DNA of 64,000 bases from Candidatus Poribacteria bacterium. Lineage in GTDB: Bacteria; Poribacteria; WGA-4E; JAJDTR01. The notes under the pieces were generated by a model. It was not told the origin of the DNA, made no database searches, and saw only the letters and a program-made list of their open reading frames with translations. A program made the translations under genes and the position numbers. The number at the start of each line of letters is the position of its first letter. Position 1 is the first letter of the stretch. Where the stretch lies: positions 30,113-94,112 of the forward strand of contig JAPPIK010000021.1 in assembly GCA_028820655.1 (NCBI GenBank), written 5' to 3'. Positions 3,393-58,298 of this stretch are shown here, piece after piece.

Positions 3393-4301
3393 ATGACATA
3401 CTACAAGACGCTACTGTTAATCTTACTCGCTGTCCTTTTTGTTGCTGCAAACACCTTCGCCGAACCTGAAGAAGTCCCTCCCGATGTATTCGAAGCCGCT
3501 GCCGATGGCTACCTCTACGCCGATTACCCCGGCGTGTTCGATGACGCCGAAGGCGATGAAGCCTTCGGCGAAGGCGTCACAATCGAAATGTGGGTCTATT
3601 TCACCGAGATTCCGCCCGACCGGCAGTGGCTCCGCCCGTACAACTGGGTAATCGTCGCAAAGCCCGCCAGCTATTTTATTTCGGCGGCTGGAAGAGCTCT
3701 CGAGGACGGCTTTGATGCCAATATGCCGGAGGGGTTTACCAGGGTCACATTCGCAGTGGAGGAGAACACCGAAGGCTGTTGTGGTCGCGGCGAAGGCGGG
3801 ATGAATTATGATCCCGGCGAGTTCCCCTTAAACCGATGGCTTCATATTGCCTTCCAGCTCGTCGTGAAAAAAAGCGGCACACACGACACGACATTTATAG
3901 ACCGCTTCGGCGAGGGAAGCGGGCGTTTTAGCGCACCGATGGGGCGCACCGAGGCGCCGCTATACGTCGGTGGCGCGCCAAAGGTAACATTCGAAAACGG
4001 CGATAAATGGAACGACGACTGGGGGCGCTCGGAGTTCGTATCCATGAAAGGCTACATTGATGAGATTCGCATTTCGAAGGGATGGCGGTATGTCGCCAAG
4101 GGGAATATCCACCCCAAACGCAACTTTCGCGTCGATAAACGCACCATCGCGCTCTGGCGCTTTGAGGAAGGTCCCGGCGCACCCTTCTACCGCGATTCTT
4201 CGGGCAACGACTATACACTCTTCCCCGGTGGCTCCCTCGACGTTCAACCGCTCAGCAAGATGAACATCACCTGGGGAAGTCTAAAACAGGGTGGGTTTTA
4301 G
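3393..4301 (+). CDS. secreted LamG/concanavalin-A-like jelly-roll protein with a shared C-terminal TWGxLK tail (paralog 2)
   Basis: Tandem duplicate of 2354..3271, with a unit length of about 1039 bp. It has a signal peptide and ends ...PLSKMNITWGSLKQGGF. Confidence 0.85.
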   Translation: MTYYKTLLLILLAVLFVAANTFAEPEEVPPDVFEAAADGYLYADYPGVFDDAEGDEAFGEGVTIEMWVYFTEIPPDRQWLRPYNWVIVAKPASYFISAAGRALEDGFDANMPEGFTRVTFAVEENTEGCCGRGEGGMNYDPGEFPLNRWLHIAFQLVVKKSGTHDTTFIDRFGEGSGRFSAPMGRTEAPLYVGGAPKVTFENGDKWNDDWGRSEFVSMKGYIDEIRISKGWRYVAKGNIHPKRNFRVDKRTIALWRFEEGPGAPFYRDSSGNDYTLFPGGSLDVQPLSKMNITWGSLKQGGF

Positions 4302-10639: not shown

Positions 10640-12607
10640 TTGATGTACCAATTCAGTGCATGGAAACTTACATTAATCATTGTCGTACTCGTTTTTGCGG
10701 CGCTGTACCTGATTCCCACCCCCGATTACTTTTTCAATCCGCTCTATGGGAATCTCCCGCCCTGGATGCAGGAAAGATTGTCCAAGTTTGAAGCGACTGA
10801 AGATAACAGCTTGAAGGTCAGCTTGAATGACGTGCAATTTCCGGAAGGGATCAACTTACATGATGCCAAGACGGATTTGAAAGACATTTTCCGTGTACAT
10901 CTGGGTAAACTTGGGTTTGTAGAGGAAACGAATTACGAGTTCGCCGGACCGGAGTCCTCCGATTTTATCGTTAAGTTCCTTCAAGAGAAAAGCACCGCCG
11001 ATCTCCAATCGGTTCTCGAAGATTTGCATCTTTACGGTAGCCTGCCGACGTTTGTGCGCAGGTTGGTTCCTAGCAACCGACTAAAGCTGGGACTAGATCT
11101 CAAAGGGGGAGTTCGCCTTGTGCTCGAGGTTGATCCGGAGCAATCCACGGCGGAGTTGCTAAAAGAACGCGCATCATCCATCCCGGAACGGCTAAGGGCT
11201 GATGACATTCTGTGTAAGAAAGTGGACGTTGTGGCCGACCAGGAATCGCTAAATGTATTCATTGTTGTTAAGAAGAAACACCGGGCCGATGTGGAACAGA
11301 AAGCCGAATACTTGAATAAAGCTCGAAAACTGCTCGATGAAATGGAATATTTTGACGACGCGACGGAGCTTTCTGCAACCGATACCCAGATCGTGTACGA
11401 AATGCGACTCAGCAAGGATGGAATTGAGAAATACAGCGAGGGTGCAATCGAGCAAGTCTTGGTCGTCCTAAGGAACCGTGTCGACGCATTCGGTGTCGCT
11501 GAACCTTCTATCAGGCGGGAAGCCAACAGACCGCGAATTATTGTTGAACTACCCGGTGCAAAGGACTCGTCCAAACCTCTTCAGATTGTCAAGACGATGG
11601 GTAGACTGGAGTTCAAACTTGTGGAGAAGAACCCGAATGGCGGCATCTACTGGTCGGGTTCCGCGGATACCCAACCCCCCGAAGATATCCCTGAGGGAAC
11701 AGAGATAAGTCTTCATCACGATGATGGAACTTCCCAAGCGAATAGTTGGTACGTGTTGAAGAGCCCTGTTCTACTCACAGGTGATCGGATAACTGGGGCG
11801 GGGCCAACTCAAGGGGCGACGGGTTTCGAAATTGCGGTGTCCATGAGCTTCGATTCGGCGGGACGACGTAAATTTGCCGAAGTCACGAGCAACCATGTCA
11901 ATGAAGCCTTGGCGATTCTGCTAGACGGGAGAGTGCAATCGGCGCCAAGGATCGAGGAACCAATCGTCGGCGGACAGGCGCGCATCACGGGGGACTTCAC
12001 ATTTGAGGAGGCAAACTATTTGTCGAATATTCTTAAATCCGGTGCTTTTCCGGTTGGCGTGAGGATTGCCGAGGAACGCACGGTAGGTCCGACGCTTGGA
12101 CAGGAATCAATCGACAACGGCATCAAGGCGGCACTCATCGGCATGGGATGTGTCATCATATTCATGCTAGTTTACTACAAGCTTTCAGGGATAGTCGCCA
12201 TCATTGCCTTGGTATTCAACATGTCGATCCTTCTCGGGGCGCTAGCGGGTTTTGGCGCGGCGTTGACTTTGCCGGGTATCGCAGGGCTCGTTTTGACTAT
12301 CGGAATGTCTGTTGATGCCAATGTTCTTATCTTTGAACGCATCCGTGAAGAGTTGCGTACGGGCAAGAATGTATGGTCGTCAATTGTAAGCGGTTACCAG
12401 AGGGCATTCTTGACAATCGTTGACGCGAATCTTACGACATTTTTCACGGCGCTGGTACTGTACCAGTTTGGGACGGGGCCTATAAAGGGATTCGCGATTA
12501 CGCTCGGAATTGGCATATTGGCAAGTATGTTCACGTCGATTGTTGTTACTCGCGAAATCTACGGATGGGTCATCGGCAAACGCAGCATAGAGAAACTCAG
12601 CATTTAG
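10640..12607 (+). CDS. secD: protein translocase subunit SecD
   Basis: N-terminal TM helix, large periplasmic domain containing LGLDLKGGV, and C-terminal multi-TM bundle. It is immediately followed by secF. Confidence 0.9.
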   Translation: MMYQFSAWKLTLIIVVLVFAALYLIPTPDYFFNPLYGNLPPWMQERLSKFEATEDNSLKVSLNDVQFPEGINLHDAKTDLKDIFRVHLGKLGFVEETNYEFAGPESSDFIVKFLQEKSTADLQSVLEDLHLYGSLPTFVRRLVPSNRLKLGLDLKGGVRLVLEVDPEQSTAELLKERASSIPERLRADDILCKKVDVVADQESLNVFIVVKKKHRADVEQKAEYLNKARKLLDEMEYFDDATELSATDTQIVYEMRLSKDGIEKYSEGAIEQVLVVLRNRVDAFGVAEPSIRREANRPRIIVELPGAKDSSKPLQIVKTMGRLEFKLVEKNPNGGIYWSGSADTQPPEDIPEGTEISLHHDDGTSQANSWYVLKSPVLLTGDRITGAGPTQGATGFEIAVSMSFDSAGRRKFAEVTSNHVNEALAILLDGRVQSAPRIEEPIVGGQARITGDFTFEEANYLSNILKSGAFPVGVRIAEERTVGPTLGQESIDNGIKAALIGMGCVIIFMLVYYKLSGIVAIIALVFNMSILLGALAGFGAALTLPGIAGLVLTIGMSVDANVLIFERIREELRTGKNVWSSIVSGYQRAFLTIVDANLTTFFTALVLYQFGTGPIKGFAITLGIGILASMFTSIVVTREIYGWVIGKRSIEKLSI

Positions 12608-43387: not shown

Positions 43388-43722
43388 GTACCACGACAAT
43401 AAGCACTCGCATCTTCAGACGATGGGTTTAGCCAGCGGTAACCGCTCGAACAGATTACTGAACCGGAGACTCGAATCGCGAGCGTTTTTTGGTTCTCCTC
43501 CGCGCGGCGCAAGACCGGACAGTGTGCATCCTTGAAATTCCATCAGAGGTCGCGTAAAGTGATACTGTGTGTGATTTGATTGTTAAGCCCTTCGTTCTCG
43601 TGGTAAAATACAAGAGTTGGAGTGTGAGATGAAGGCTTCTTGACCATTAGAGCGTGAGGACGCCTTCGGTGTATGTTCCAAAAAGAGTTGTCATGAACAA
43701 TTTCGAAAAAGGAGACACAAAA

Positions 43723-44505
43723 ATGAAACATCTTGTTTTTACAATGGCTGCCTTAATGATTTTTGCGGTTGCATCTTTAACTGTGGTCGCACAGCAAATC
43801 GTATTGGACGAGAACTTCGATAACGTCCCGAATGGTGAACTACCGGATGGCTGGACAGTTCTCTACAACGACACTTATAATGGATTCGATGATGCGGCTC
43901 AAAAACAGGTGCCGTGTGACCCGCCGTGTCCCGGTTGGCAAGTATTGGACGGGGTATTGGATTCCGGTAATGGCGACCATGACAGAGAAGCCCTGTTTAT
44001 CATGGTTGGGAGTGGCTGGGAACAGATCACTGTCCAAGTCGATATGGTGCGGGCGCAGGGCACAGGGTATATGGGAACTGCGACCAACGTCCAGCCAAAC
44101 GGCGACCGATACGACTGCAGATTCATGACCGGCAACCCGGGCAATCTCCTGAATGCCGAAGGAACGAATGACTTTGACCGACGCGGCGCCAATCCCGTGC
44201 TATGGTTAGTTCAACGCGTGAATGGAAAGTTTACGGTTCTCGCTCAAGCAGACAACGTCGCCGACTTGGAGCGCGGACCGTTTCATCCGATGGAGATGAC
44301 GGCCAACGGCGCCAACTTGAGTTGTACCGCCGCAGGTGCTACTGTGGAGGCTACGGCGTTGGATGCGCTTCCCGCTGGCGGTGTCGGTTTCCATAACGGC
44401 GAATACGGTGCGTTCTATGACAGCGTGTTGGTGACGGCCGTTGCGACATCGGTAGATCCGAAAAGTAAATTGGCGGCAACCTGGGGACAGATTAAGCAGC
44501 AATAG
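43723..44505 (+). CDS. secreted jelly-roll (LamG/glucanase-like) protein with the shared C-terminal TWGxIK tail
   Basis: ATG at 43723 with an AAAGGAG RBS. Signal peptide MKHLVFTMAALMIFAVASLTVVAQQ. Ends ...SVDPKSKLAATWGQIKQQ. Confidence 0.75.
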   Translation: MKHLVFTMAALMIFAVASLTVVAQQIVLDENFDNVPNGELPDGWTVLYNDTYNGFDDAAQKQVPCDPPCPGWQVLDGVLDSGNGDHDREALFIMVGSGWEQITVQVDMVRAQGTGYMGTATNVQPNGDRYDCRFMTGNPGNLLNAEGTNDFDRRGANPVLWLVQRVNGKFTVLAQADNVADLERGPFHPMEMTANGANLSCTAAGATVEATALDALPAGGVGFHNGEYGAFYDSVLVTAVATSVDPKSKLAATWGQIKQQ

Positions 44506-44890: not shown

Positions 44891-45736
44891 TTGATGGCGA
44901 CGAATCAACTGTCAGGAGGTTTTATTCAGATGATAGTGTCAATCGCGAAACAGGTACTTCTGAGCGCAATTTGCTTGATGTTTCTCTTTTTTCCTTATGC
45001 GGAGTGTATCGCAAAGGTTTTAGAAATTGCCGACAGCAGGGAAAGTATCAACGACCTGCGCAGCAAAGCCGTAATCAACTTTGCACATCAAGGCGAAGGT
45101 AATCCCAATGTGCCACTCAAACTGGAAAACGAGGACGGATTTGGGGATAGGTGGTCTATCTTTTTGGGAACGGCTGAATATCACACACATCCCGCGACCA
45201 ATTGGGGCATTGAGATTAAGCCGAATCCGCAAGGGGAAAATGAATACCGATACATGACTATCGCTTGGAAGGCCGACCGAAGAAATAGAGGTTTGATGAT
45301 TCAACTTCACGGGAAATGGGGATTTGGCTGCGTCCACGAAGATTCGTGTTGGGACCATCGATGGTATGCCGGCGATTTAGATTCGATGGCTCCCGTATTA
45401 AAGAATCCCAAAGATGGTGGAAACGTACAAAAGTTCGAATTGCCCGAAGGAAGTTTTTCGCACGAGTGGAAGTTCCTTATTCTAGATCTTTCTCAGTATG
45501 CGATGAATGTGATTCACGCAAAACCCTTCAAAGTATTAAAAGGAGAATGGACAGTTAACGCAATAGCGCTTGATACGGATAATCCTTTCCCCAACGGCGG
45601 CGGAGCGCACTTTGACGTTATATACTTTACGCAGACGTTCGAAGAAGCCGAAGAGATAGAACGGTTGGCATTGGCGGTTTCCCCGGAGGATAAGGTGACC
45701 ACATCATGGGGAACAATCAAGGCTTCTCAACATTGA
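44891..45736 (+). CDS. secreted protein of unknown fold with the shared C-terminal TWGxIK tail
   Basis: N-terminal hydrophobic signal. Ends ...VSPEDKVTTSWGTIKASQH. Confidence 0.7.
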   Translation: MMATNQLSGGFIQMIVSIAKQVLLSAICLMFLFFPYAECIAKVLEIADSRESINDLRSKAVINFAHQGEGNPNVPLKLENEDGFGDRWSIFLGTAEYHTHPATNWGIEIKPNPQGENEYRYMTIAWKADRRNRGLMIQLHGKWGFGCVHEDSCWDHRWYAGDLDSMAPVLKNPKDGGNVQKFELPEGSFSHEWKFLILDLSQYAMNVIHAKPFKVLKGEWTVNAIALDTDNPFPNGGGAHFDVIYFTQTFEEAEEIERLALAVSPEDKVTTSWGTIKASQH

Positions 45737-46991: not shown

Positions 46992-47595
46992 CCGCGCCGG
47001 CAGGCACGAATTGATCGCGGATCCGAAGAGTGAGGAGATTAACGCATATCTTGGGGCTAAGCTTGAGGAAAAGCGTTACCAGCATGTCCTATCGGTGCGC
47101 GACATGGCCGTGGATTTGGCGGGCAAATTCGATGCGGATTTGCAGAAAACAAACCTTGCCGCTATGCTGCATGATTGCGCGAGGTGGATGAACACGCGCC
47201 AGCTATTCGATGCCGTCGCCGACTACGAGATTGGACTTGATGAATTTGAAAGAATTAGCGCGTCACTCTTGCATGCACTCGTGGGCGCTGAACTCGCGGT
47301 TGATGTTTTTTCAGTTGATGATGAGGAGATACTCAGCGCTGTCCGAAGTCATACTAAAGGAAACAGGGCAATGACGTTGGTTGACAAGATCTTGTTCGTG
47401 GCAGATTTTGCTGAACCGAATCGAACTTATCCGGAAGCAGAGTCGGTACGCCAGATCGCCAACGAAGATATCAATCAAGCGGTGTTTGAGGTAGCCAGAC
47501 ACAAAATCACCACTCTCCTTGAGAAGGGGTTAGTCATACATCCTGATACCATCGCCGTCTACAATGGGGCGCTGTGCGAAAATACAGATTTGTAA
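46972..47595 (+). CDS. yqeK: HD-domain bis(5'-nucleosyl)-tetraphosphatase YqeK
   Basis: HD motif H...HD (YQHVLSV...MLHDCAR). Conserved position after nadD. Confidence 0.85.
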   Translation: MMKTRNDRAGRHELIADPKSEEINAYLGAKLEEKRYQHVLSVRDMAVDLAGKFDADLQKTNLAAMLHDCARWMNTRQLFDAVADYEIGLDEFERISASLLHALVGAELAVDVFSVDDEEILSAVRSHTKGNRAMTLVDKILFVADFAEPNRTYPEAESVRQIANEDINQAVFEVARHKITTLLEKGLVIHPDTIAVYNGALCENTDL

Positions 47596-47625
47596 TTTGC
47601 CAGCGAAGCCCGAGGAGGAAAAAAC

Positions 47626-48039
47626 TTGGCAGGACATGCTACAGTGGATATCGTACAAGCGGCGGTAAGTGCGGCGTTGAGCCGACGCGCGCGCGACCCG
47701 ATTATCCTAGATCTCCGGGAGTTGGGGTCTTTTACGGATTACTTTGCAATTTGCAGTGGGACATCCGACATTCAGGTCGAAGCCATATCCGCTGCCGTCT
47801 TGGACGAGTTGGAAGAGAAATGGAACGTTCGGCCTTGGCATCGCGAAGGCTTGCATCAGTCGGATTGGGTCTTGTTGGACTACGTTGACTTTGTTGTGCA
47901 CATTTTTCTTGATGAAAAACGGAACCATTTCAATCTTGAGCGGCTCTGGATAGAAGCTCCAACGATTGAAGTGCCGGATGTTGAAGTAGAAGGCGATACC
48001 GGATTTGACTCGTTCGAGAAAGAAGAGTCAATCCTGTGA
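47626..48039 (+). CDS. rsfS: ribosome silencing factor RsfS (Iojap)
   Basis: Iojap signature DYFAICSGTSDIQVEAI...DYVDFVVHIF. Confidence 0.9.
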   Translation: MAGHATVDIVQAAVSAALSRRARDPIILDLRELGSFTDYFAICSGTSDIQVEAISAAVLDELEEKWNVRPWHREGLHQSDWVLLDYVDFVVHIFLDEKRNHFNLERLWIEAPTIEVPDVEVEGDTGFDSFEKEESIL

Positions 48040-48547
48040 ATTTTTTTGGCTACCTAGAATGTAGCCAACGAATACCGAATTATTAATTCCTACCATTCTC
48101 CCATTAACATCGCAGCTTGTGGACTTGCCATCTTTAATTCTGAGGTATTTGTTAGGAATTCTTTGCACTAGTTCGTGGTTGCCCTAGATGATTGCAACGC
48201 CACGTAGAACCTCGCTGATCAGGAGTCATTACGAAAACCGAGCGTCGTCCAAGCCATACCCGATTGAACTCGCAGAGGTAATCGTTCTTGATGTATGTCC
48301 GCCCTTTGAGTCGTTGAGTGACCGCGAAATCTCTATCGCCTTGAGATCTCTATCTCGGCCGTTATGGGATTCACTATGGGATCACTATCGCACTTCTTGT
48401 TCAGCCGCTTGATCCTTCCTTGTCCAGTCAGTTGAACTCCCTTGATTTATCCGCGAAGCTGATAAATCTCTTGATTGTCGTTCGCTCATTCACTTGATAT
48501 TCGACAATTTCTCGACTTTACCGACACAAAATCCATGAGGTGACAAA

Positions 48548-49534
48548 ATGCTACTCAAGCTGATTCCCCGGAGTCTTTTGTTTGCGGCACTGTGCCTCTG
48601 TCTGACGCGTGTGGAAATGGTGTTGAGTCAGGGACCCGTGGCCCAAGAGTCACAGATCGTCTTTACCTCCGAAAGGGATGGGAATTATGAAATTTACGTG
48701 ATGGATGCCAACGGCAAGTCTATAAAAAGACTCACACATCACCCGATGGCCGACGGCCAAGCTGTATGGTCTCCTGATGGAACGAGAATAGCATTTGCGT
48801 CCGATAGAAATGAGGGCAATATCCAGATTTTCATCATGGACAGCAATGGAGGAAATCCGACAAGACTAACGGACGGCGTCTGGGACTGATATCCAGCGTG
48901 GTCGCCTGACGGCCGCAAGATAGCATTCTCGGGCTATCCCGAGGAACTTAACCCTGAGATTTTCGTGATAGACACCGACGGAAAGAACCTGACGAGACTA
49001 ACGAACCAAATCGGGCTTGACACTGCACCGTCATGGTCACCCGACGGTCAAAGGATTGCCTTCATGTCCCGCAGGGGCGGGGACGATGACATCTTCGTGA
49101 TGGACGCTGACGGCGGTAATCAGACGAGGATAACACGCAATCTGGATCTCTCGGGTAACCCGTCTTGGTCGCCGGATGGACAGAGGATTGCATTCGATGC
49201 CTTTGAAGACAAAAACTTTGAAATCTATGTGGTGGATCCTGATGGAAAAAACCTGGACAGATTGACTAACAATCTAGTGCATGACCAAGCTCCCGCTTGG
49301 TCACCTGATGGGCGTAAGATTGCATTTAATAAATGGGAAGTAGTGCCTTTCCCCCACATCGAAATACATCTAATGACATCCGACGGAAAATATCTGAAAC
49401 GTCTTACCAATCTGCCAAATCATGATGATTACCATCCTGATTGGACTGATTCTTCAGGACGTGCTGTTTCTCCGACAGGCAACCAAATTACAATTTGGGG
49501 CAGGGTTAAGAAATTTTCGTCTCTATTTCGGTAA
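48548..49534 (+). pseudogene. PD40 (TolB-like) beta-propeller gene, first unit of the array, interrupted by an in-frame TGA at 48887-48889
   Basis: The 113 aa and 189 aa ORFs are in the same frame and separated by one TGA (...LTDGVWD*YPAWSPDGRKIAF...). Signal peptide at the N-terminus. The shared tail ...QITIWGRVKKFSSLFR is at the C-terminus. Confidence 0.6.
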
Positions 49535-49753
49535 TTTGTATCTAGCTGGCTGACATCCGACAACTGGGCAAGACCATTTGTATTAGGCTAAAAGGCGGTT
49601 GAAGGACGCCCTGAGCAACAAACTGCAAGGGGAGTTGACCGATGAATGGGCGTAAATCCTTAAAGCCCCTCCGAGGTCAAAGGCAAAAGGGATAGTTTCC
49701 GACTTTCTCGACAGAGAAGAGGGGAAGTTAGCCAGCCGCAGCGCCTTTGCAAC

Positions 49754-49921
49754 GGTGGCATTGGTTTGCACAACCGCTCTGGTAATGACGTTTCTTGTTG
49801 CCTCGGACGCCGAGGCAGGACCGCCTTGCGGCAAAGCAAATAGTGCAGATGGCTGGGTCGGTTGCAGTAAGTTTGTGAATCAGGTCTGGCATCGCAGGTG
49901 CATTCCGGAGGGGTGGAATTA
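49754..49921 (+). CDS. degenerate copy of a small Cys-containing secreted peptide gene (no good start codon)
   Basis: The DNA is ~80% identical over about 80 nt (49739-49819) to the leader region of the 53.8 kb peptide gene, which encodes SAFATVALV.TTAL.MT.LVA.DA.A. Only a GTG without an RBS is available as a start. Mature part GPPCGKANSADGWVGCSKFVNQVWHRRCIPEGWN. Confidence 0.2.
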
Positions 49922-50402
49922 ACCGTGACATTTAGCGTATAGACCATCCTGAATTGTTCATTATCCTGTTGTTGACTCATGACGCGTTTTTTCCATTGTC
50001 CTCCATCAATTGGCAAGCCGGCAAACAAGCGCTCAAACCATAGGCACCTGAATATGCTCGGTTGACCGGTTTGTGCCTTGTTTACCAATGCGCTGGCGTG
50101 TTGAGAGAGGGGTGGCATTTATCAATGTGCACGGAGATTGAAAATTCGGGATGAGCTATGCATTTAGCTCTTTTCATTGAGACATAAAGGAAAAACCTTG
50201 CAAGCTTGATGCTTGTCGGTTGCTTAATTTTATGGAAATCAAACCGGGGAATTAATTTCTCTGGTTCGTGCCGCATTCGGTTGGCTATTTTGTCACAAGA
50301 ACTAGGAGGTGTAATCATCAATCTTGATGATTTTCTCAAGCGATTCATGTGCTTTTCAATAATATTGCGACGCAACCGACATGAAACCTATGAGGGAGAG
50401 AG

Positions 50403-51362
50403 ATGCGATTCAAGCTGATACTCGGACATCTACTGTTTGCGGGACTGTGCGTCTGTCTGACGAGTGGAGAGTTGTGGTTGGGAAGCGCGCTCGCCTTTAA
50501 CACAAATCGAATTGTTTTTACATTCTGGAAACATGGCGACGGTGAAGTCTATGTAATGGATGCCGATGGCAGAAACCGAGAAAACCTTACAAACCATCCA
50601 GGGTATGACTTCGATCCGGATTGGTCTCCCGACGGGACGAAGATTGCATTCGGTTCCGGCCGAAACGACGTTTTTCAAATCTACGTAATGGACGCCGATG
50701 GTGAAAACCAAATGAGACTGACAGATGGACCGCGGCAAAAGCGGGAGCCAGACTGGTCTCCCGATGGGAGTAAGATTGCGTTCACCGTCGACGATGGGGT
50801 ATCTCATATCGGCGTGATGGACGCGGATGGAAAGAATCGTGTAAGGCTTGAAAACCGGGCGAGTGAGCCATCATGGTCTCCGGATGGGAGACAGATTGCA
50901 TTCGCGACCTCGAGAAACGGGGACCATGAAATCTTCGTGATAGGCGCTGACGGACAGGGACTTGAAAGGGTGAAGCACGGTTTGCGTGGACACAGCCCGT
51001 CGTTTTCTCCCGACGGACGACGGATTGCATACTATGAGTCGCACGAAGGATTCAGACACATCCATTCGGTCGACACTGATGGGAAAAATCGGGTGAGGCT
51101 CACGCACAATCAAGGGCATCATTCGCACCCCACGTGGTCTCCCGATGGGCAGATGATTGCATATGTGGCCTATAAAGATCTATTTTTCGGCGACGCAACG
51201 ATTCACTTGATGACCGCGGACGGAAAATATCTTAAGCAACTTAGCAGAATTCGCGATGGGATCGATTTCCAGCCCGACTTTAGTCCGGTGGGACTAGCTG
51301 TCTCTCACTCTTCCAAGACAGCTACAATTTGGGGTAAGATCAAAATACCGTTTGGGCAATAG
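50403..51362 (+). CDS. secreted PD40/TolB-like beta-propeller protein with the shared C-terminal tail
   Basis: Signal peptide. Repeated (D)WSPDG.(K/R)IAF blades. Ends ...SKTATIWGKIKIPFGQ. RBS GAGGGAGAGAG. Confidence 0.85.
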   Translation: MRFKLILGHLLFAGLCVCLTSGELWLGSALAFNTNRIVFTFWKHGDGEVYVMDADGRNRENLTNHPGYDFDPDWSPDGTKIAFGSGRNDVFQIYVMDADGENQMRLTDGPRQKREPDWSPDGSKIAFTVDDGVSHIGVMDADGKNRVRLENRASEPSWSPDGRQIAFATSRNGDHEIFVIGADGQGLERVKHGLRGHSPSFSPDGRRIAYYESHEGFRHIHSVDTDGKNRVRLTHNQGHHSHPTWSPDGQMIAYVAYKDLFFGDATIHLMTADGKYLKQLSRIRDGIDFQPDFSPVGLAVSHSSKTATIWGKIKIPFGQ

Positions 51363-51473
51363 AAGAAATAGACGTTATTTGGCAATTGGAGTCTTGTTTC
51401 CCGTGGGGGCGGGGAGTCGCGACCTGCAAATCGCTCCTACAGGTATAGAGCTCGAAAAAGGAGTAAATGACCT

Positions 51474-52472
51474 ATGAAAAACGTCAGCCATTATATCAGC
51501 AGATACCTGCTTCTATTGTTGTTGGGGTTACTGTTTGCGTCGTACAGCGCGGCGCAGGGATTTGTGCCGAGAATCGTCTTTGCATCGAACCGTGACGGGG
51601 ACTGGGACATTTACTCCATGGATGAGAACGGGGATAACGTGGTCCAGCTCACCAACAACCCGGCATCCGATCGCTTTCCCGGTTGCTCGCCGAACGGGAG
51701 AAGGATAGCGTTCGAATCAGAGCGCGGCGTTACGCCTGACCTGTATGTGATGGACAGCGATGGCAGTAACGTGGTAAGACTCACCCAAGACAATTTTTTA
51801 GAAGGCCGCCCCAGTTGGACGCCGGAGGGAACGAAGATTGCCTTTTCATCTTTCCGTTTTGCCGTTGGCAACTCGGAAATCTACGTGATGGACGGCGACG
51901 GAAATAACCTGATAAATTTGACAAACCACAAGTGGCAGGACGTTAGGCCGAGTTGGTCGCCAGATGGCAGCAAGATGGCGTTTACCTCCATGCGTGATGG
52001 CCGCTTCAATACTCCCAGGCATATTTTCGTGATGAATGCGGATGGAACGGAAAGGCGCAATCTCACTGCCGATACCCAACTAACGAACAGTCGGAATCCT
52101 AGTTGGTCACCGGATGGACGCAAGATTGCTTTTGACTCGCGGCGCCTCTTCCGAGATGGCCAGCGTGATGACATTTTCGTGATCACCGCTAAAGGAGAAG
52201 AGTTAGAAAGGCTTACGAACAAGGAGGGTGCCAATATTCAACCCGTCTATTCGCCGGATGGTACCAATATCGCCTTTGTGTCAACGCGTGATGGAGGTTA
52301 TAACATATATTTGATGGACACCAACGGGAAGAACGTTGTCAGACTCACGAAAACTCCGCATGGTATTGAAAACCTAAATCCCGCATGGCCTCACGGCGCA
52401 TTAGCAGTCAATCCCAGCGGAAAGTTACCGATATCTTGGGGAGAACTCAAGCGCACCCACAACCCGCGATGA
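51474..52472 (+). CDS. secreted PD40/TolB-like beta-propeller protein with the shared C-terminal tail
   Basis: Signal peptide and PD40 blades. Ends ...SGKLPISWGELKRTHNPR. Confidence 0.85.
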   Translation: MKNVSHYISRYLLLLLLGLLFASYSAAQGFVPRIVFASNRDGDWDIYSMDENGDNVVQLTNNPASDRFPGCSPNGRRIAFESERGVTPDLYVMDSDGSNVVRLTQDNFLEGRPSWTPEGTKIAFSSFRFAVGNSEIYVMDGDGNNLINLTNHKWQDVRPSWSPDGSKMAFTSMRDGRFNTPRHIFVMNADGTERRNLTADTQLTNSRNPSWSPDGRKIAFDSRRLFRDGQRDDIFVITAKGEELERLTNKEGANIQPVYSPDGTNIAFVSTRDGGYNIYLMDTNGKNVVRLTKTPHGIENLNPAWPHGALAVNPSGKLPISWGELKRTHNPR

Positions 52473-52628
52473 TGTCAATCGGGCTAGAGGACTGGGCGGG
52501 TCATTGAAAAAAATCTCCAGCGCCGATAGCGTTGCAAAATGGTTTGGAGCGCGTCCATACTGTACCTGCGCAGCCACTCAAAACAGGTTTCTTTACCGTT
52601 CTTTTTACGCACAACCAAGGAGAAAAAA

Positions 52629-53594
52629 ATGCGATTCGGGAGCATGCTTGGGACGTTTATTGGGTTCACCGTGATTCTGTTAAGCGGTGAACTGTGGTTA
52701 ATAGAAGGAATCGCCGCGCAGAAGTCACGGATTGTCTTTAGTCACCTCGGATTTGACAACTTTGAAATCTATGTAATGGACGCCGATGGAGGAAACCGGG
52801 AAAATCTTTCAAACCACCCAGTGCACGACGTGGATCCGGATTGGTCTCCCGACGGGACGAAGATTGCATTCGTTTCCAACAGAAACGATGCCAAATATCA
52901 GATCTACGTCATGGATGCCGATGGAACGAACCAGATTAGACTGACTGATGGACCGCGGGACAAGTGGCAACCTGACTGGTCTCCGGATGGGGGTAAGATT
53001 GCGTTCTCCGTCGACGATGGGGTTTATCGTATCGACGTGATGGATGTGAATGGAGATAATCGTGTGGTGCTTGAACACGAAGCTTCAGCGCCGTCATGGT
53101 CTCCGGACGGGGGTAAGATTGCATTCATATCGAGGAGAGACAAGGGCCGTGAGATCTACGTGATTGGCACTAATGGACAGGGGCTTGAGCGGCTGACGCG
53201 CAATTTCTTGGGCGGGCACAGCCTGTCGTTTTCTCCCGACGGTCGACGGATTGCATCCGACCCCTGGCATGGGGAATTCAATCACATCTATGTGATGGGG
53301 GCGGATGGAAAAAATCCCATGAGACTTTCGCACAATCAAGAGCATCATACGGCCCCGACGTGGTCTCCCGATGGGCAGATGATCGCATATGTGGTCTCTG
53401 ACGATGGCAATCCTTTCGACCGAAGAATTCACTTGATGACCGCGAACGGAAAATATATTAAGCAACTCAGCAAAGTTCGTGAGGGGATCGATGACCAACC
53501 GGACTTTAGCCCGGTGGGACTAGCTGTGTCCCCCGTTTCCAAAACAAGCACAACTTGGGGCACGCTGAAGAAAATGTCGTCCAGTTTCCGGTAG
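52629..53594 (+). CDS. secreted PD40/TolB-like beta-propeller protein with the shared C-terminal tail (close paralog of 50403..51362)
   Basis: ATG at 52629 with an AAGGAGA RBS. Signal peptide and PD40 blades. Ends ...VSKTSTTWGTLKKMSSSFR. Confidence 0.85.
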   Translation: MRFGSMLGTFIGFTVILLSGELWLIEGIAAQKSRIVFSHLGFDNFEIYVMDADGGNRENLSNHPVHDVDPDWSPDGTKIAFVSNRNDAKYQIYVMDADGTNQIRLTDGPRDKWQPDWSPDGGKIAFSVDDGVYRIDVMDVNGDNRVVLEHEASAPSWSPDGGKIAFISRRDKGREIYVIGTNGQGLERLTRNFLGGHSLSFSPDGRRIASDPWHGEFNHIYVMGADGKNPMRLSHNQEHHTAPTWSPDGQMIAYVVSDDGNPFDRRIHLMTANGKYIKQLSKVREGIDDQPDFSPVGLAVSPVSKTSTTWGTLKKMSSSFR

Positions 53595-53828
53595 TTTGCG
53601 CCTTCCCTGTCGAAATCCGGCGCCCAGGCAAGGACAAGTGCATCAAACTATGAGAGCCAAATGGTTTCATGTGATGGCGTAACGCGCCAATGCACAGAAG
53701 CAAGACTTGATAAAGATAATTGAAGATTTAAATTATCAAGGGTTCAGTGAGGCGTCGATTTAAGAGTTTAAGATTTGGAGTTGGCGGAGCGGAAAGTGTC
53801 GCTCATCCTTCTCCATGTAGAGGGAATC

Positions 53829-54032
53829 GTGGGTACTCGCAGCGCATTTGCAACAGTGGCATTGGTTAGTACGACCGCTCTGGCAATGACGTTGCTTGTC
53901 GCTCCAGATGCCAAAGCCGTTTGGTGTCCAGCGGGTTGCGGCCAAGGACAATTTTGTTGTTGGTATGGCGGAGGACACTATTTCTGCCGGGGGCTGGCGC
54001 CAGAGCCTGGCTATAAGTGCTGGAGGGTGTAA
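53829..54032 (+). CDS. small secreted Cys/Trp/Gly-rich peptide (bacteriocin- or defensin-like precursor)
   Basis: GTG at 53829 (or TTG at 53775). Predicted signal peptide MGTRSAFATVALVSTTALAMTLLVAPDAKA with an AxA cleavage site. Mature peptide VWCPAGCGQGQFCCWYGGGHYFCRGLAPEPGYKCWRV (37 aa, 6 Cys). A perfect hairpin follows. Confidence 0.4.
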   Translation: MGTRSAFATVALVSTTALAMTLLVAPDAKAVWCPAGCGQGQFCCWYGGGHYFCRGLAPEPGYKCWRV

Positions 54033-54045
54033 CCTTGAACCAGTA

Positions 54046-54075
54046 GACAAATCAGGGGATTACCCCTGATTTGTC
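54046..54075 (+). terminator. perfect 13 bp-stem hairpin downstream of the small peptide gene
   Basis: GACAAATCAGGGG atta CCCCTGATTTGTC, 14 nt after the stop codon and followed by a weak U-tract (tgcctt). Confidence 0.45.
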
Positions 54076-54109
54076 TGCCTTAAAGAGATGGAGGCATTCT
54101 TAGCGAAAA

Positions 54110-55117
54110 ATGAAATTCGAATTCATTAAGACGACTCTTCCCATCCTTAAGAACAGTTTGTATCTTTTGCTGACCGGTTTGTTGCTCGCGTCGTTAAACT
54201 CGGTGCGGGCGGTTGCGGACACGATTGCTTTCAGTTCAAATAAAAGTATCTACACTATGAATACTGATGGGACAAATCTCATCAAACTTGCTCCGGGCGG
54301 TACCCCCTCTTGGTCGCCGGATGGGACAAGGATTGTGTATTCCTTCGGACTCGGCAGGTTTCGCGGTGATGTCTCCGACATTTACATCATGGATGCCAAC
54401 GGTGCGAACGGCGTGAATCTCACCAAAGGACGGCACAAGGTTAACTCACTGCCTGCTTGGTCGCCCGACGGTACGAAGATAGCTTTTAGGTCCAATCGTG
54501 ATGGGAATTTCGAAATATATGTGATGAACGCCGACGGGAAGAATCCAATCAACCTCACACTGCACCCAGATAGCGACAGTTGGCCGACGTGGTCACCGGA
54601 CGGGAGGCAAATCGCCTTCGAGTCGTTGCAAGTTGCCGCCGGAGTGCTCAATCATTGCGATATATTTGTCATGGATGCCGACGGCGCCAATCGGACCAAT
54701 GTTACCCAAAACCCCCGCGCATACAATCGGACACCTGATTGGTCGCCGGACGGAAGCAAAATAGCGTTCGCGGCGGTGCGAAATGTCAATCGTGTAGACC
54801 TCTGGAATTCAGATGTTGACATCTTTGTGATGGATGCCGACGGAACTCATCCCGTAAGACTCACTGAAGATGCGCGGTTCAATTGGTTCCCAAGTTGGTC
54901 ACCGGATGGCAAAAGGATGGTCTTTGTTCGAGGAACGCAAGACGATGTCACCGACTGCGACATCTGTATCATGAACGCGGATGGAACCGGTCTTGAAAAC
55001 CTCACCCAAACCCCCGGTGTGGGCGAGTTCCACCCTTCTTGGAAACCAACTCCGTTTTCGGTATCATCACGAGGAAAGTTGACCGTTGTATGGGGAACGG
55101 TGAAACAGAATCACTAG
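54110..55117 (+). CDS. secreted PD40/TolB-like beta-propeller protein with the shared C-terminal tail (tandem unit 1 of 3)
   Basis: 335 aa. Signal peptide and PD40 blades. Ends ...SVSSRGKLTVVWGTVKQNH. Confidence 0.85.
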   Translation: MKFEFIKTTLPILKNSLYLLLTGLLLASLNSVRAVADTIAFSSNKSIYTMNTDGTNLIKLAPGGTPSWSPDGTRIVYSFGLGRFRGDVSDIYIMDANGANGVNLTKGRHKVNSLPAWSPDGTKIAFRSNRDGNFEIYVMNADGKNPINLTLHPDSDSWPTWSPDGRQIAFESLQVAAGVLNHCDIFVMDADGANRTNVTQNPRAYNRTPDWSPDGSKIAFAAVRNVNRVDLWNSDVDIFVMDADGTHPVRLTEDARFNWFPSWSPDGKRMVFVRGTQDDVTDCDICIMNADGTGLENLTQTPGVGEFHPSWKPTPFSVSSRGKLTVVWGTVKQNH

Positions 55118-55141
55118 CTATGGAGGCGTGACGAACGAGAA

Positions 55142-56149
55142 ATGAAATCCGATCCATTAGGAAGACTCTCCCCATCATTAAAATGCATCGTATTCCAATT
55201 GATGGCCGGTGTATTATTCACGTCCCTAAATTCGGCATGGGCTGTTGGGGGCACGATTGCTTTCACTTCACAGGGGAATATCTACACCATGGCAACCGAT
55301 GGGACAAATCTCATCGAACTGACTCAGGGTAGCAGCCCCTCCTGGTCGCCGGATGGGACAAAGATCGCGTATTCCTTCGGACTCGGCAGGTTTCGCGGTG
55401 ATGTCACCGACATTTACATCATGGATGCAAACGGCGCGAACCTTGTGAACCTTACCCAAGGACGGAAGAAAGTCAACATGTCGCCCGTTGTGTCGCCGGA
55501 TGGGAAAAGAATTGCGTTTGCCTCATACCGCGATGCCAATTACGAAATTTACGTGATGGATGCTGATGGGAAGAATCCGAAAAACCTTACTCTGCATCTG
55601 GATGACGATACCTCCCCGGCTTGGTCACCGGACGGGACAAAGATTGCCTTCGGGTCAAGGCAGGTTAGAGAAGACATATTGACTCACTCTGACATATTCG
55701 TGATGAATGCCGATGGCGCCAATCGAACCAATATAACCCAAAATCCCCGTGCATACAATATCACGCCCAGTTGGTCGCCGGTCGGAGACAAAATTGCCTA
55801 CGCAGCATTTTCAAATGTCGATCATGTAGGCCCGTTAAACGCTAACTTGGACATCTCTGTGATGAATGCCGATGGAACTGATGCCGTCAGACTCACTGAA
55901 GATGCACGTATGAATTTGTCCCCAAGTTGGTCGCCGGATGGTAAAAGGATTGTCTTCGTGCGAGCACACGAAGACGATCCCATATACTGCGACATCTACG
56001 CAATGAACGCGGATGGAACCGGTCTCGTAAACCTCACCCAAACCCCTATTGTGGGCGAGTTCGACCCTTCTTGGAAACCTACTCCGTTTTCGGTATCATC
56101 ACGAGGCAGGTTGCCCGTCGTGTGGGGAACGGTGAAACAGAAACGATAG
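55142..56149 (+). CDS. secreted PD40/TolB-like beta-propeller protein with the shared C-terminal tail (tandem unit 2 of 3)
   Basis: 335 aa. Ends ...SVSSRGRLPVVWGTVKQKR. Its start is exactly 1032 bp after the previous start, with a conserved spacer gctatggaggcgtgacgaacgagaaATGAAAT. Confidence 0.85.
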   Translation: MKSDPLGRLSPSLKCIVFQLMAGVLFTSLNSAWAVGGTIAFTSQGNIYTMATDGTNLIELTQGSSPSWSPDGTKIAYSFGLGRFRGDVTDIYIMDANGANLVNLTQGRKKVNMSPVVSPDGKRIAFASYRDANYEIYVMDADGKNPKNLTLHLDDDTSPAWSPDGTKIAFGSRQVREDILTHSDIFVMNADGANRTNITQNPRAYNITPSWSPVGDKIAYAAFSNVDHVGPLNANLDISVMNADGTDAVRLTEDARMNLSPSWSPDGKRIVFVRAHEDDPIYCDIYAMNADGTGLVNLTQTPIVGEFDPSWKPTPFSVSSRGRLPVVWGTVKQKR

Positions 56150-56173
56150 CTATGGAGGCGTGACGAACGAGAA

Positions 56174-57181
56174 ATGAAATACCGTCGATTAGGAAGACTC
56201 GCCTTATCTTTAAAAGGCATCCTTTTCGTTTTGATAATCGGTGTATTATTCACGTCCTTAGATTTGGTACGGGCGGTTGGGGACACGATTGCTTTCACTT
56301 CACAGGGGAATATCTACACTATAGACACTGATGGGACAAATCTGAAAAAACTTACTCGAGGCTATAATCCCTCTTGGTCGCCTGACGGGGCAAAGCTCGT
56401 GTTTTCCTTCGGTCTCGGCAGGTTTCGCGGTGACGTCACCGACATTTACATCATGGATGCGAACGGTGGGAACCGCTTGAATCTTACCAAAGGACGCCAC
56501 AAACAGAATGCCCTGCCTGCTTGGTCGCCCGATGGGACAAAGATAGCTTTTGAGTCCAACCGTGATGGGAATTCCGAAATCTATGTGATGAATGCCGAGG
56601 GGAAGAATCCCAAAAACCTCACGCTGCACCTCGATGACGATACGTGCCCGACGTGGTCACCGGATGGGACAAAGATTGCCTTTTGGTCAAGGCAAGTCGC
56701 TGCCGGGGTGCTGAGTCTTTCGGATATATTTGTAATGGATGCCGACGGCTCCGATCGGATCAATATCACCCAAAATCCCCGTGCCTCCAATAGGACGCCA
56801 AGTTGGTCGCCGGACGGAAGCAAAATCGCTTACACGGCAGTGCGAAATGTCAATCGTGTAGACCCTTGGAATGCAAACTTGGACATCGTTGTGATGAATG
56901 CCGACGGAACTCATCCCGTCAGACTCACTGAAGATGGACGTGCAAATTGGCTCCCGAGTTGGTCACCGGATGGCAAAAGGATCGTATTCGAACGAACGAT
57001 GCTCAACGATCCCATTTACGCCGACATCTATGTGATGAACGCGGATGGAACCGGTCTTGTAAACCTCACCCCAACCCCTCTTGTGCCCGAGTGGGACCCT
57101 TCTTGGAGACCGACTCCGTTTTCCGTATCATCACGAGGCAAAATGCCAACCCGATGGGCGGAGATAAAAGAAAGGCGCTAA
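56174..57181 (+). CDS. secreted PD40/TolB-like beta-propeller protein with a degenerate shared tail (tandem unit 3 of 3)
   Basis: 335 aa. Ends ...SVSSRGKMPTRWAEIKERR (WG changed to WA). Its start is again exactly 1032 bp after the previous start. Confidence 0.85.
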   Translation: MKYRRLGRLALSLKGILFVLIIGVLFTSLDLVRAVGDTIAFTSQGNIYTIDTDGTNLKKLTRGYNPSWSPDGAKLVFSFGLGRFRGDVTDIYIMDANGGNRLNLTKGRHKQNALPAWSPDGTKIAFESNRDGNSEIYVMNAEGKNPKNLTLHLDDDTCPTWSPDGTKIAFWSRQVAAGVLSLSDIFVMDADGSDRINITQNPRASNRTPSWSPDGSKIAYTAVRNVNRVDPWNANLDIVVMNADGTHPVRLTEDGRANWLPSWSPDGKRIVFERTMLNDPIYADIYVMNADGTGLVNLTPTPLVPEWDPSWRPTPFSVSSRGKMPTRWAEIKERR

Positions 57182-57374
57182 ATCAGGTTAGGGCGAATAA
57201 AGTTGCGATTCGGTGCAAATCGACAGAGGTAAAAGTCAACTTTCCTCAACTTCTCGGATGGTGGCAGGATATTGCGACAATGTGTTAGTTGAAAAGATGG
57301 TTGACGGTCGTTGATTTGAGAACCGCCAATCGGTCGGTAGGCGCGACGATTGAAAACAAGAGGCTATTAGCACA

Positions 57375-58298
57375 TTACGGCCGGATTATCTCCAATGTCT
57401 CCTCAAGGTTCTTGATTCCGGCGGTTGTTCCGATTGCCGTGACGCACGCCGCACCCGCCGCCGAGGCTAGTTCGCTCGTGCGTTTCAAATCCCACCCCAT
57501 CACGATTCCTGCGAGAAATCCCGCGACATATGCATCCCCAGCCCCCGTAGCATCAACGACGTCGACCTCGTAGGCTGGCACATAAATTTCGTCAGTGCCG
57601 GTACGGACGTAACTTCCGCGTTCTCCCATTTTCAATCCGACAGTCCGGATTCCATAATCCATAAGGAATCTTGCAATCTCGGGAGGCGAATCAAGCCCGG
57701 TGAGTTGCTCGGCCTCTTCAATGCTAGGCAAAAATACGTCAATGTACGGCAAGCAAGGCTCTAGTGTTTTCAACCAGTTTCCCGATGTGTCCCAGACGGT
57801 ATCCAGAGATGTTGTCACGCCCGCGTCTTTGGCATGGCGTAGGATGCGCGCCGTAGGTTCACCATCTAACTTCGGCATAACAAATGTACCGGCGACATGC
57901 AATATTTTGCTCGACCGAATCAAATCCAAATTCATGTCGTCCTCGGACAGGACACTATTTGTTCCCATGTAGTGGAGGAAACTCCGCTCACCGTCGGACG
58001 CGACAGCGACAAATGTAACGGGCGAGTTGATGTCGGCATCGCGAATCATCGCACGCGTATCCACTCGATTGTTATCCAAGACCTGCAACACCATGTCGCC
58101 AAACGTGTCGGTGCCGATCCTTCCCATGGCTCCGACATTGATTCCCAACTTGGAGAGGGTGATCGCCGTATTGTTGGCGCAGCCGCCGGAGTGCATTTCA
58201 AACTCATCAAACACCATCAATCTGCCCTTTTCCGGAAACGTATCAATAGGGCGCCCTATCACATCTACCACGAAAATACCGAGAGACAATACATCCAT
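57375..58298 (-). CDS. PfkB-family carbohydrate kinase (ribokinase/2-keto-3-deoxygluconate kinase-like)
   Basis: C-terminal DATGAGDAYVAGFL anion-hole motif. N-terminal GG-containing sugar-binding region. Start taken at MDVLSLGIFVVD. Confidence 0.8.
   Translation of the reverse strand: MDVLSLGIFVVDVIGRPIDTFPEKGRLMVFDEFEMHSGGCANNTAITLSKLGINVGAMGRIGTDTFGDMVLQVLDNNRVDTRAMIRDADINSPVTFVAVASDGERSFLHYMGTNSVLSEDDMNLDLIRSSKILHVAGTFVMPKLDGEPTARILRHAKDAGVTTSLDTVWDTSGNWLKTLEPCLPYIDVFLPSIEEAEQLTGLDSPPEIARFLMDYGIRTVGLKMGERGSYVRTGTDEIYVPAYEVDVVDATGAGDAYVAGFLAGIVMGWDLKRTSELASAAGAACVTAIGTTAGIKNLEETLEIIRP

Follow-up and report, generated by a model that had tools for sequence, protein, structure and literature searches.

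A family of putatively exported cysteine-rich mini-proteins encoded beside tagged beta-propeller genes in Candidatus Poribacteria

Introduction

Small precursors in which a conserved signal or pre-region is followed by a hypervariable mature part held together by cysteines are found in the conotoxin-type families, such as the O-superfamily conotoxins, mussel MgCRP-I, legume NCR and Brassica SCR/SP11; these are multigene families shaped by birth-and-death evolution, and framework VI/VII has the cysteine order C-C-CC-C-C, the same that occurs in the bacterial family described here. In the SCR/SRK system, moreover, the gene for the variable Cys-rich ligand is tightly linked to the gene for its receptor. 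Mussel MgCRP-I has been described as a gene family of Cys-rich secreted peptides (PMC4558851). The subject of this work is a stretch of 64,000 nucleotides (nt) from a Candidatus Poribacteria genome (assembly GCA_028820655.1, contig JAPPIK010000021.1, positions 30,113 to 94,112; hereafter, the window), where an open reading frame (ORF B, or copy B) ending at 54030-54032 lies within an array of PD40/TolB-like beta-propeller genes, and a second copy of the gene (copy A) is located about 4 kb upstream. The reading favoured here, with moderate confidence, is that copy B would encode an exported disulfide mini-protein, co-expressed with the propeller encoded downstream and probably partnered to it; it belongs to a larger family, of which copy A is a dead member.

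Poribacteria are uncultivated and abundant symbionts of sponges. PD40 is among the repeat classes enriched in sponge microbiomes, where it is considered "eukaryote-like" and has no proposed partner (PMC9531527); the published sponge knottins, on the other side, were attributed to the sponge host (PMC12426817, PMC13418204).

The Peptide Family and Its Coding Signature

Protein searches revealed a family of 53 clusters at 90% identity (E-values down to 6.5e-27), all of 54-109 amino acids (aa) and none with a Pfam domain, and a HMMER scan of 1.84 billion representatives at 50% identity gave 57 matches at E <= 1e-3 and 29 at E <= 1e-10. Close relatives were found only in five Candidatus Poribacteria metagenome-assembled genomes (MAGs), three of which are complete chromosomes, with 2-3 or more copies each, the scan covering one genome per GTDB species; judging from these matches, the family occurs in Candidatus Poribacteria and in some more distant lineages. 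Two members are also contained in the Logan assemblies of ERR14057259 and SRR13587048, which have no bearing on expression. No description of the family was found in the full-text literature, which was searched for Poribacteria with PD40, cysteine-rich and propeller and for knottin with sponge and symbiont.

Intact precursors measure about 90 aa and comprise a 53-aa leader, formed by a 28-aa N-terminal extension (N-extension), a hydrophobic region and an AxA site, followed by the core. The leader consensus is MRSHLRSxAKRKVSDFLLREEGMVGNRSAFATAALVSTTALAMTLLVAPDAxA, whose first 28 residues, up to MVGNRS, are the N-extension and whose end is an AP-D-A-x-A site; more than 90% is invariant across these first 53 residues, and the hydrophobic stretch measures 19 aa, with Kyte-Doolittle values of 1.9-2.0. 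The cores, instead, are 35-55 aa long, hypervariable and barely alignable except for the Cys pattern C-C-CC-C-C, which is present in most members; some have 7-9 Cys. One subtype, named W-type, follows the pattern AWCP..C..CCW.G..HYFC..Y.CW. Distant members keep the motif [KR][KR][VIL]S[DH]F[IL]xxExGxVGx[RK][SN]A[FL], together with the hydrophobic region, the small-x-small site and a Cys-rich core with a CC doublet. Thus, the conserved leader and hypervariable core that had been proposed from the two copies of the window hold across all 53 clusters. In intact copies, AAGGAGGT is placed 8 nt upstream of the ATG, as a strong Shine-Dalgarno (SD) sequence.

The leader is conserved as protein-coding sequence. 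In 11 intact genes, the variable sites of the leader at the three codon positions number 19, 15 and 38, respectively, and in codons 12-38 positions 1 and 2 are almost fixed while position 3 varies. The Nei-Gojobori (NG86) method applied to 11 W-type genes gave for the leader a ratio of nonsynonymous to synonymous differences (pN/pS) of 0.24 (0.05-0.2 among intact copies), with pS 0.25, and for the core, including the invariant Cys, a pN/pS of 0.66 with pS 0.42. These values point to strong purifying selection on the leader; its lower synonymous divergence hints in addition at gene conversion or at a constraint at the nucleotide level, as likewise reported for the signal sequences of conotoxins. 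Within the window, the leader DNA of copies A and B is about 84% identical over about 85 nt, close to the 80 nt noticed originally, with weaker similarity across about 145 nt; two leader probes of 24-26 nt matched only at these two sites in the 64 kb, with no match expected in shuffled sequence, so that the search for further copies by leader DNA yielded no third site there. Where the two copies differ, it is mainly at the third positions of codons read in the frame of copy B; the conservation is therefore coding, and not that of a repeat that is non-coding or lies on the opposite strand.

As another explanation of the 80-nt conservation, it was considered that the PD40 array contains a repeat or a regulatory element that does not code for protein, the ORF being fortuitous. 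The DNA flanking the genes is indeed also conserved between units, in the 5′ untranslated region (5′UTR), in the hairpin and in a 225-nt element described below, and the difference in pS between leader and core would fit it as well. However, the third-position variation and low leader pN/pS, the strong SD ahead of the ATG of intact copies, the maintenance of the ORF and Cys framework in 50 or more divergent sequences and the lack of conservation of the opposite-strand ORF leave this explanation a negligible probability; the gene is a genuine coding sequence for a small, signal-bearing Cys-rich peptide.

The family appears to evolve through duplications, after which cores diverge fast and copies often decay. 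Besides the copies of the window, a frameshift is found in L010a, a truncation in L014a and decay in L015c; deletion variants are L011 and L021c. The latter, at L011 5983-6258 (the same as in L003-L006, and P0016) and L021 6001-6276 (P0003), have lost the last Cys and the hairpin; their ORFs run into the post-hairpin spacer (...PALKRWRHY*), with a stop 7 nt before the PD40 start, and are found in several complete genomes. A metagenomic protein of 116 aa, P0074, is a chimera with a PD40-type N-terminus (MRFGRTLVSFIGLTV...IVFTHLGFDD) joined to the peptide hydrophobic region and a Cys-rich core, and points to recombination between members of the arrays.

Copy B: Reading Frame, Signal Segment and Core

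ORF B lies on the plus strand and starts at TTG 53775 or, more plausibly, at GTG 53829. The product from GTG 53829 is MGTRSAFATVALVSTTALAMTLLVAPDAKA followed by VWCPAGCGQGQFCCWYGGGHYFCRGLAPEPGYKCWRV, i.e., a 30-aa signal-like segment and a 37-aa core with six Cys. The signal segment (53829..53918, plus strand) contains MGTR, with a single basic residue, then a hydrophobic run of 19 aa that averages 1.99 on the Kyte-Doolittle scale, and A-K-A, after which signal peptidase I is predicted to cut; on inspection, this is the n-region, h-region and small -3/-1 layout of a type I Sec signal. GAGG is found 5 nt upstream of GTG 53829, which occupies the position of the family's Val24 codon, while TTG 53775 has no usable SD. 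The core and its stop (53919..54032, plus strand) are of the W-type, with Cys at positions 3, 7, 13, 14, 23 and 34 in the knottin-like six-Cys framework C-C-CC-C-C. Copy B is 78% identical to P0001 across the 67-aa query (E = 6.5e-27), and all six Cys and the W/H/Y/F framework are kept in its core.

A Sec-type signal with an AxA site and a 37-aa mature peptide with six Cys were the core of the original prediction, and both were recovered from GTG 53829; its view of the leader as a plain signal peptide was right for the h-region and the AxA site and fell short of the family leader, which is extended by the N-extension to 53 aa. The fold prediction that it had recommended was obtained with AlphaFold2: the mature 37-mer alone gave a predicted local distance difference test (pLDDT) score of 75.9, with three short beta strands at 12-15, 21-24 and 33-36. 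When the precursor was modelled with the family alignment, the leader had low confidence, with its only helix in the hydrophobic region, and the core scored about 70-75.

Copy B has nevertheless lost its 5′ part. A focused alignment identified a deletion of about 200 nt, with the junction at 53780/53781, that removed the proximal 5′UTR, the SD, the ATG and codons 1-7: window positions 53655-53780 are collinear with the region from about -330 to -215 of the intact homologues L009b and L012b, and are then joined to leader codon 8. A MAFFT multiple alignment had suggested a 13-nt frameshifting insertion after an ancestral GTG 53747, and this was rejected in favour of the deletion. A remnant of the N-extension (LAERKVSLILLHVEGI, consensus MAKRKVSDFLLREEGM) follows directly at 53781..53828 (plus strand). 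A consensus scan also returned a promoter-like site, TTGATA and TAAATT/AATTAT with a 16-18 nt spacer, at 53707..53736 (plus strand), which may be functional and falls in the stretch collinear with the far-upstream region of the intact homologues. The remaining start options for copy B seem to be GTG 53829 and TTG 53775 only; on the simplest reading, copy B, if translated, starts at GTG 53829 and yields a precursor of 67 aa, the first 30 of which would form a signal peptide of the ordinary type. Its expression is uncertain because the SD, the ATG and the first seven codons are lost; it may still be made, since signal peptide and core are still constrained. The N-extension remnant is altered at 8 of 21 residues, against 1 of 25 in the part of the leader that follows it (Fisher p = 0.007).

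As for copy B in particular, the chief rival explanation is that both copies of the window are dead relics, copy B being a recent pseudogene with no product here, and that the family is functional elsewhere. The deletion itself, the decay of what remains of the N-extension, the lack of a usable SD at TTG 53775, the fact that the gene caller of the assembly skipped ORF B, the many copies visibly degraded at other loci and the clearly dead copy A all speak for it; the abrupt change from 8/21 to 1/25 at GTG 53829, the intact six Cys and framework aromatics, the GAGG before the GTG, the perfect hairpin with a compensated A-U pair where others have G-C, and the retained promoter-like block speak against it. 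On balance, this explanation is held to be rather unlikely.

Copy A

Copy A (49674..49922, plus strand) is a pseudogene, with a leader remnant at 49674-49817 and a core remnant with stop at 49818-49922. It is in frame from 49665/49674 to 49922, and its first ATG, GTG or TTG codon is GTG 49755; the leader similarity by which this locus was originally placed at 49664-49921 is real, while the frame does not run from 49664. The SD and the ATG are lost and the core has three Cys, thus without the C-C-CC-C-C framework. The core of copy A is a relative of the CC[RM]KWV.QVMHY.C.P...CP subtype from which Cys II, III and VI were lost, and it aligns to L012b and P0027; the mature parts of the two copies had been regarded as unrelated, and copy A proves instead to be a decayed member of another core subtype of the same family. 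Unlike in copy B, decay of the leader is even, with 8/21 and 6/25 changes in the same two parts (p = 0.35). Copy A is a dead paralogue, in agreement with the degenerate state first attributed to it.

The source assembly contains a 152-aa gene on the minus strand at 49660-50118 (L001 5551-6009), antisense through copy A and the 225-nt element. Coding on this strand was rejected: the ORF is not conserved at other loci, its substitutions and 1-nt indels are not codon-like, and it is probably spurious. A conservation extending on the opposite strand, which would have indicated a non-coding repeat, was thus not observed.

Linkage to Tagged Propeller Genes

ORF B is followed by a gene coding for a 335-aa secreted PD40/TolB-like beta-propeller (54110..55117, plus strand; Pfam PD40, E = 3.3e-36), which ends with the C-terminal tag ...SVSSRGKLTVVWGTVKQNH; this propeller subtype follows every W-type peptide gene. 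The W-type cassette consists of the peptide gene, about 12 nt, a stem-loop, about 33 nt and the ATG of the 335-aa PD40 gene (MKFEFIKTTLP... ...SVSSRGKLxVxWGxVKQ), with a total of 72-95 nt between the two genes. More generally, about 30 copies in about 20 loci run in the same direction as the secreted beta-propeller genes in whose arrays they lie, and most often a propeller gene comes next. A co-directional position within PD40 arrays was seen for 17/17 copies in 9 GTDB loci (5 Poribacteria MAGs) and likewise in five metagenomic loci (L018-L021 and L026). The link is present both at the syntenic locus and at unrelated loci. The window and a Poribacteria chromosome have their flanking gene order in common, with 260- and 268-aa unannotated genes, nadD-like, HD and RsfS at one end and PfkB and PhyH at the opposite end, which identifies the window as poribacterial.

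At the distant locus L022, three peptide genes are each located 59-79 nt upstream of a propeller, two of the BNR/Sortilin-Vps10 type and one PD40, and all three propellers have the same SPxGKLxxxWGxIK C-terminal tag; therefore, the partner is the tagged secreted propeller and not PD40 as such. The functional link to the propeller genes, first suggested by the placement of ORF B between them, is hence seen as gene linkage conserved across genomes, loci and propeller families.

In the window, PF07676 matched six ORFs with E-values from 1e-16 to 3.5e-51, as expected for PD40/TolB-like propellers, and the score of the NCBIfam TolB equivalog was below its cutoff, indicating that they are not TolB itself. 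All PD40 proteins of the window (48965 to 57181) end in the tag, (S/D)PxxKxxx(T/S)WGx(I/L/V)K plus a further 2-12 residues, most of them basic, and so do four window proteins with no Pfam match (2354-3271, 3393-4301, 43654-44505 and 44891-45736). The tag itself has no NCBIfam or Pfam match and looks like a signal for sorting or anchoring that is general in this lineage and as yet uncharacterised. Copy A is followed by a gene for a 319-aa tagged PD40 protein (50403-51362, plus strand), ahead of which a promoter-like site is found (TTGTCA, 17 nt spacer, AATCAT; 50290-50318, plus strand); the arrangement of spacer, sigma70-like promoter and MRFKLI-type PD40 gene behind copy A also occurs in L009, L015, L016 and L017. 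Two further PD40 ORFs, 48548-48889 (113 aa) and 48965-49534 (189 aa), look like a single propeller gene split by a disruption; PD40 genes of related loci are often fragmented, and the arrays therefore decay quickly. The region 54110-57181 contains three tandem 335-aa PD40 paralogues with 24-nt spacers, and a peptide gene is found ahead of the first only.

The Pfam annotation of the neighbours in about 20 loci comprises only propellers, housekeeping genes, glycosyltransferases, an epimerase and a DsbA/GILT-like protein. The last is a thiol oxidoreductase with two N-terminal CxxCH motifs, absent from the window and coded near four peptide-propeller arrays (L022 1333-2046; L024 11290-12051; L012 about 10922-11611; L015 about 11733-12191); in L022 and L024 its gene is preceded by that of a protein without Pfam match and with N-terminal MRKYLIL.... 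This enzyme might catalyse the folding of the Cys-rich peptides.

RNA Structures Downstream of the Peptide Genes

Between ORF B and the propeller gene, a stem-loop is found at 54045..54076 (plus strand), with arms 54045-54058 and 54063-54076 forming 14 perfect base pairs around the loop ATTA. It lies 12 nt past the ORF B stop and 33 nt ahead of the next ATG, forms 16 pairs in RNA, has a centroid energy of about -27 kcal/mol (z = -4.95 for the 86-nt segment) and is unique within the window. All 14 pairs persist across 11 W-type cassettes, and two of the pairs show compensatory changes: one is A-U in the window and G-C elsewhere, the other G-C in L018 and A-U elsewhere. The perfect 13-bp hairpin first reported at 54046-54075 is thus real and conserved, with arms longer by one pair. 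Its interpretation as the 3′ mark of a highly expressed small gene was less well borne out: no U-tract follows the stem, the sequence there being GCCTTAAAGAG, and the terminator scan did not report it as a rho-independent terminator. The 33 nt between the hairpin and the PD40 ATG leave no room for a separate promoter and, together with the lack of a U-tract, suggest an intercistronic element on a shared transcript rather than a classic terminator.

In the units that are not of the W-type, the counterpart of the hairpin is a structured element of about 225 nt, conserved after 10 such copies; in the window it starts just past the copy A stop (49937..50161, plus strand), has a basal stem of about 35 bp and is partly decayed, with broken pairs and z -3.0. 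RNAalifold predicted 73 pairs; one-sided changes produce G-U on the plus strand in about 11 pairs, versus C-A in 1, and this bias favours an RNA structure. Consistently, folding is stronger on the plus strand (-83 kcal/mol, z -5.4) than on the minus strand (-67.7 kcal/mol, z -3.4). The element is a candidate structured 3′UTR or RNA element, so that both types of unit appear to place a strong RNA structure directly downstream of the peptide gene. Rfam 15 gave no match at E <= 1 in 47500-57500, for either the hairpin or the 225-nt element. The terminal inverted repeats had suggested a miniature inverted-repeat transposable element; this identification was rejected, as the element occurs in one orientation only, almost always right behind a peptide gene, and shows the plus-strand G-U bias. 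It is also present in L009 (3035-3260), L012, L013, L014, L015, L016, L017 and L011 (about 4012-4230), the last with no recognisable peptide gene upstream of it.

Relation to Known Peptide Classes

No known family was matched by the peptide in Pfam, NCBIfam, PDB sequence or PDB fold searches. Among the knottin and toxin families (Toxin_12, conotoxin), only 1 of 55 members matched Toxin_12, at E = 0.58, and no solved knottin was retrieved either by PDB sequence or by fold.

The original typing as bacteriocin, toxin or precursor of a ribosomally synthesised and post-translationally modified peptide (RiPP) was not upheld by the genomic context. According to this explanation, RiPP precursors or Sec-dependent bacteriocins or toxins would be directed against competitors, with the leader as the recognition site of an enzyme and the propeller as immunity or accessory protein. 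The conserved leader and hypervariable Cys-rich core mirror lanthipeptide and bacteriocin precursors, several paralogues are present per genome, strong stem-loops are common behind the structural gene of such operons and the N-extension is conserved at the protein level with no obvious role in export. However, no gene for a RiPP maturase (radical-SAM, LanM/LanB, YcaO), RiPP recognition element, peptidase-domain ABC exporter or small membrane immunity-like protein is annotated within +/-6-10 kb in about 20 loci; the double-glycine (GG) site of class II bacteriocins is absent from the leader-core junction, and the hydrophobic region with AxA is unlike cytoplasmic RiPP leaders. Pfam and NCBIfam gave nothing, PADLOC and the bacteriocin- and RiPP-specific libraries not having been searched for the peptide. 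This explanation is therefore regarded as improbable.

Even less probable are Flp/Tad-like minor pilins, in which a prepilin peptidase would cut after the Gly of ..REEG|MVGNRS.., or single-pass membrane proteins that stay uncleaved; either way, a hydrophobic helix would carry a variable Cys-rich head. FLLREEG followed by a hydrophobic helix does resemble the Flp motif FLKDESG|ATAIEY, and pilins typically combine a conserved N-terminus with a variable C-terminus held by disulfides; a Peptidase_A24 (prepilin peptidase) is coded at 8913-9611 of the distant locus L024, 2.6 kb downstream of a family member, the sole case among the loci examined. Against a pilin, Flp_Fap PF04964 was not matched by any of 55 members even at E <= 10, and the processing motif G|xxxxEY is not found, the conserved Gly being followed by x-V-G-x-[RK]-[SN]-A-[FL]: E5 and Y6 are absent, Arg or Lys is at about +5 and eight polar residues separate the Gly from the helix. 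By tblastn, no prepilin peptidase or tad genes were detected in the window or in the other loci, about 20, outside L024. The small-x-small site past the helix is kept across very divergent members, which favours cleavage by signal peptidase I.

A twin-arginine translocation (Tat) signal, suggested by a weak hit on the Tat leader of MelC1 (E = 1.8), was also rejected: the consensus G-N-R-S-A-F has one basic residue and no S/T-R-R-x-F-L-K, and RR occurs in only two distant members, with the wrong spacing for Tat. The Pfam scan, whose library would include any model of the extended signal peptide region (ESPR), returned no such family.

Proposed Function

Returning to the exported mini-protein favoured above, the precursor would be exported through Sec and cut by signal peptidase I after AxA; oxidation in the periplasm would then give a small three-stranded, disulfide-locked mini-protein, a step to which the DsbA/GILT-like oxidoreductase near four arrays would fit. 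Outside the cytoplasm, the mini-protein would work together with the tagged beta-propeller of the next gene, most likely being its ligand or a subunit of it. In W-type cassettes, such as that of copy B, the two genes would be on one transcript, where the stem-loop between the cistrons could serve in RNA stability, processing or attenuation in favour of the peptide cistron. If ESPR and YSIRK are a guide, the 28-aa N-extension may adjust when, or by which route, export takes place.

Several points weigh against this proposal. ORF B is not called as a gene in the source assembly, and it is devoid of the SD, the ATG and the strongly selected N-extension of the family, so that it may be a recent pseudogene whose frame is open by chance. 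The interaction with the propeller is deduced only from the order of the genes, and genes linked within a duplicating array have a common history whether or not their products interact; moreover, several propellers of the same subtype (e.g., at 55142 and 56174) have no peptide gene. Finally, the stem-loop has no U-tract, so that its effect on expression is conjectural, and the proposal does not account for the 28-aa N-extension.

A bolder version of the favoured reading, which is considered doubtful, is that the hypervariable Cys-rich peptides each serve the adjacent tagged propeller as its cognate ligand or as a small subunit, in a polymorphic and fast-diversifying peptide-receptor system, analogous to SCR/SRK, on the envelope of a symbiont dominant in sponges, with the N-extension as a dedicated export or timing route; it could serve in host recognition, in the evasion of sponge phagocytosis or in the discrimination of kin or phages.

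To our knowledge, bacterial families with a conotoxin-like layout, i.e., an invariant leader and a hypervariable Cys scaffold, are rare, and they could supply stable peptide scaffolds. Exported disulfide mini-proteins genetically tied to propellers are testable candidates for symbiont-host communication, and they raise the possibility that some of the disulfide-rich peptides of sponge extracts come from symbionts and not from the animal. In addition, the conserved N-extension may mark an unrecognised class of extended signal peptides. The interest of the family is tempered by the damage to both copies of the window.

Comparison with Known Systems

Among the nearest known systems are the conotoxin-type families, from which the Poribacteria family differs in being bacterial, in its 53-aa leader with a 28-aa N-extension, in the absence of a propeptide and in the linkage to propellers; there is no sequence or detectable structural similarity. 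With knottins such as asteropsins, recifin and stryphnines it shares cores of 30-40 aa, six Cys including a CC doublet and a source in the sponge holobiont, and a three-stranded sheet is predicted for its core; it matches no solved knottin in sequence or fold, and part of its members have 7-9 Cys.

As for the leader, the ESPR of autotransporters and two-partner secretion proteins and the YSIRK-G/S signals of Gram-positive surface proteins are conserved segments of about 25 aa which precede an ordinary n-h-c signal peptide, are common to one class of exported proteins and are dispensable for basic recognition by Sec. The Poribacteria leader differs from them in its motif, [KR][KR]VSDF[LI]xxExGxVGx[RK], and in its cargo, which is a tiny peptide rather than a large surface protein.

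The pairing of a small secreted protein with a propeller has a precedent in methylamine dehydrogenase (MauA/MauB) and in the gamma and beta subunits of quinohemoprotein amine dehydrogenase, where a small, crosslink- or disulfide-rich, Trp-containing periplasmic subunit with a long leader is coded beside its seven-bladed propeller partner and forms a complex with it. Small subunits of this type are conserved, measure 80-130 aa, carry a Trp-derived quinone cofactor and need MauG or radical-SAM genes. An assignment to these quinoprotein subunits (MauA/QhpC) was tried and discarded, as the Poribacteria family combines hypervariable cores with an absence of linked MauG or radical-SAM genes; moreover, Trp is conserved only in the W-type.

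Strong stabilising stem-loops and attenuators directly behind a short, abundantly expressed structural gene, with a larger gene following on the same transcript, are known from nisA-nisB, papA and the puf and mal repetitive extragenic palindromic (REP) elements; the W-type hairpin differs from these in the absence of a U-tract, and the non-W-type units carry the 225-nt element in its place. Thus, secreted Cys-rich families with a conserved leader and a hypervariable core are known; what appears unusual here, as far as the sequences indicate, is the bacterial origin, the extended leader and the near-constant linkage to a tagged propeller.

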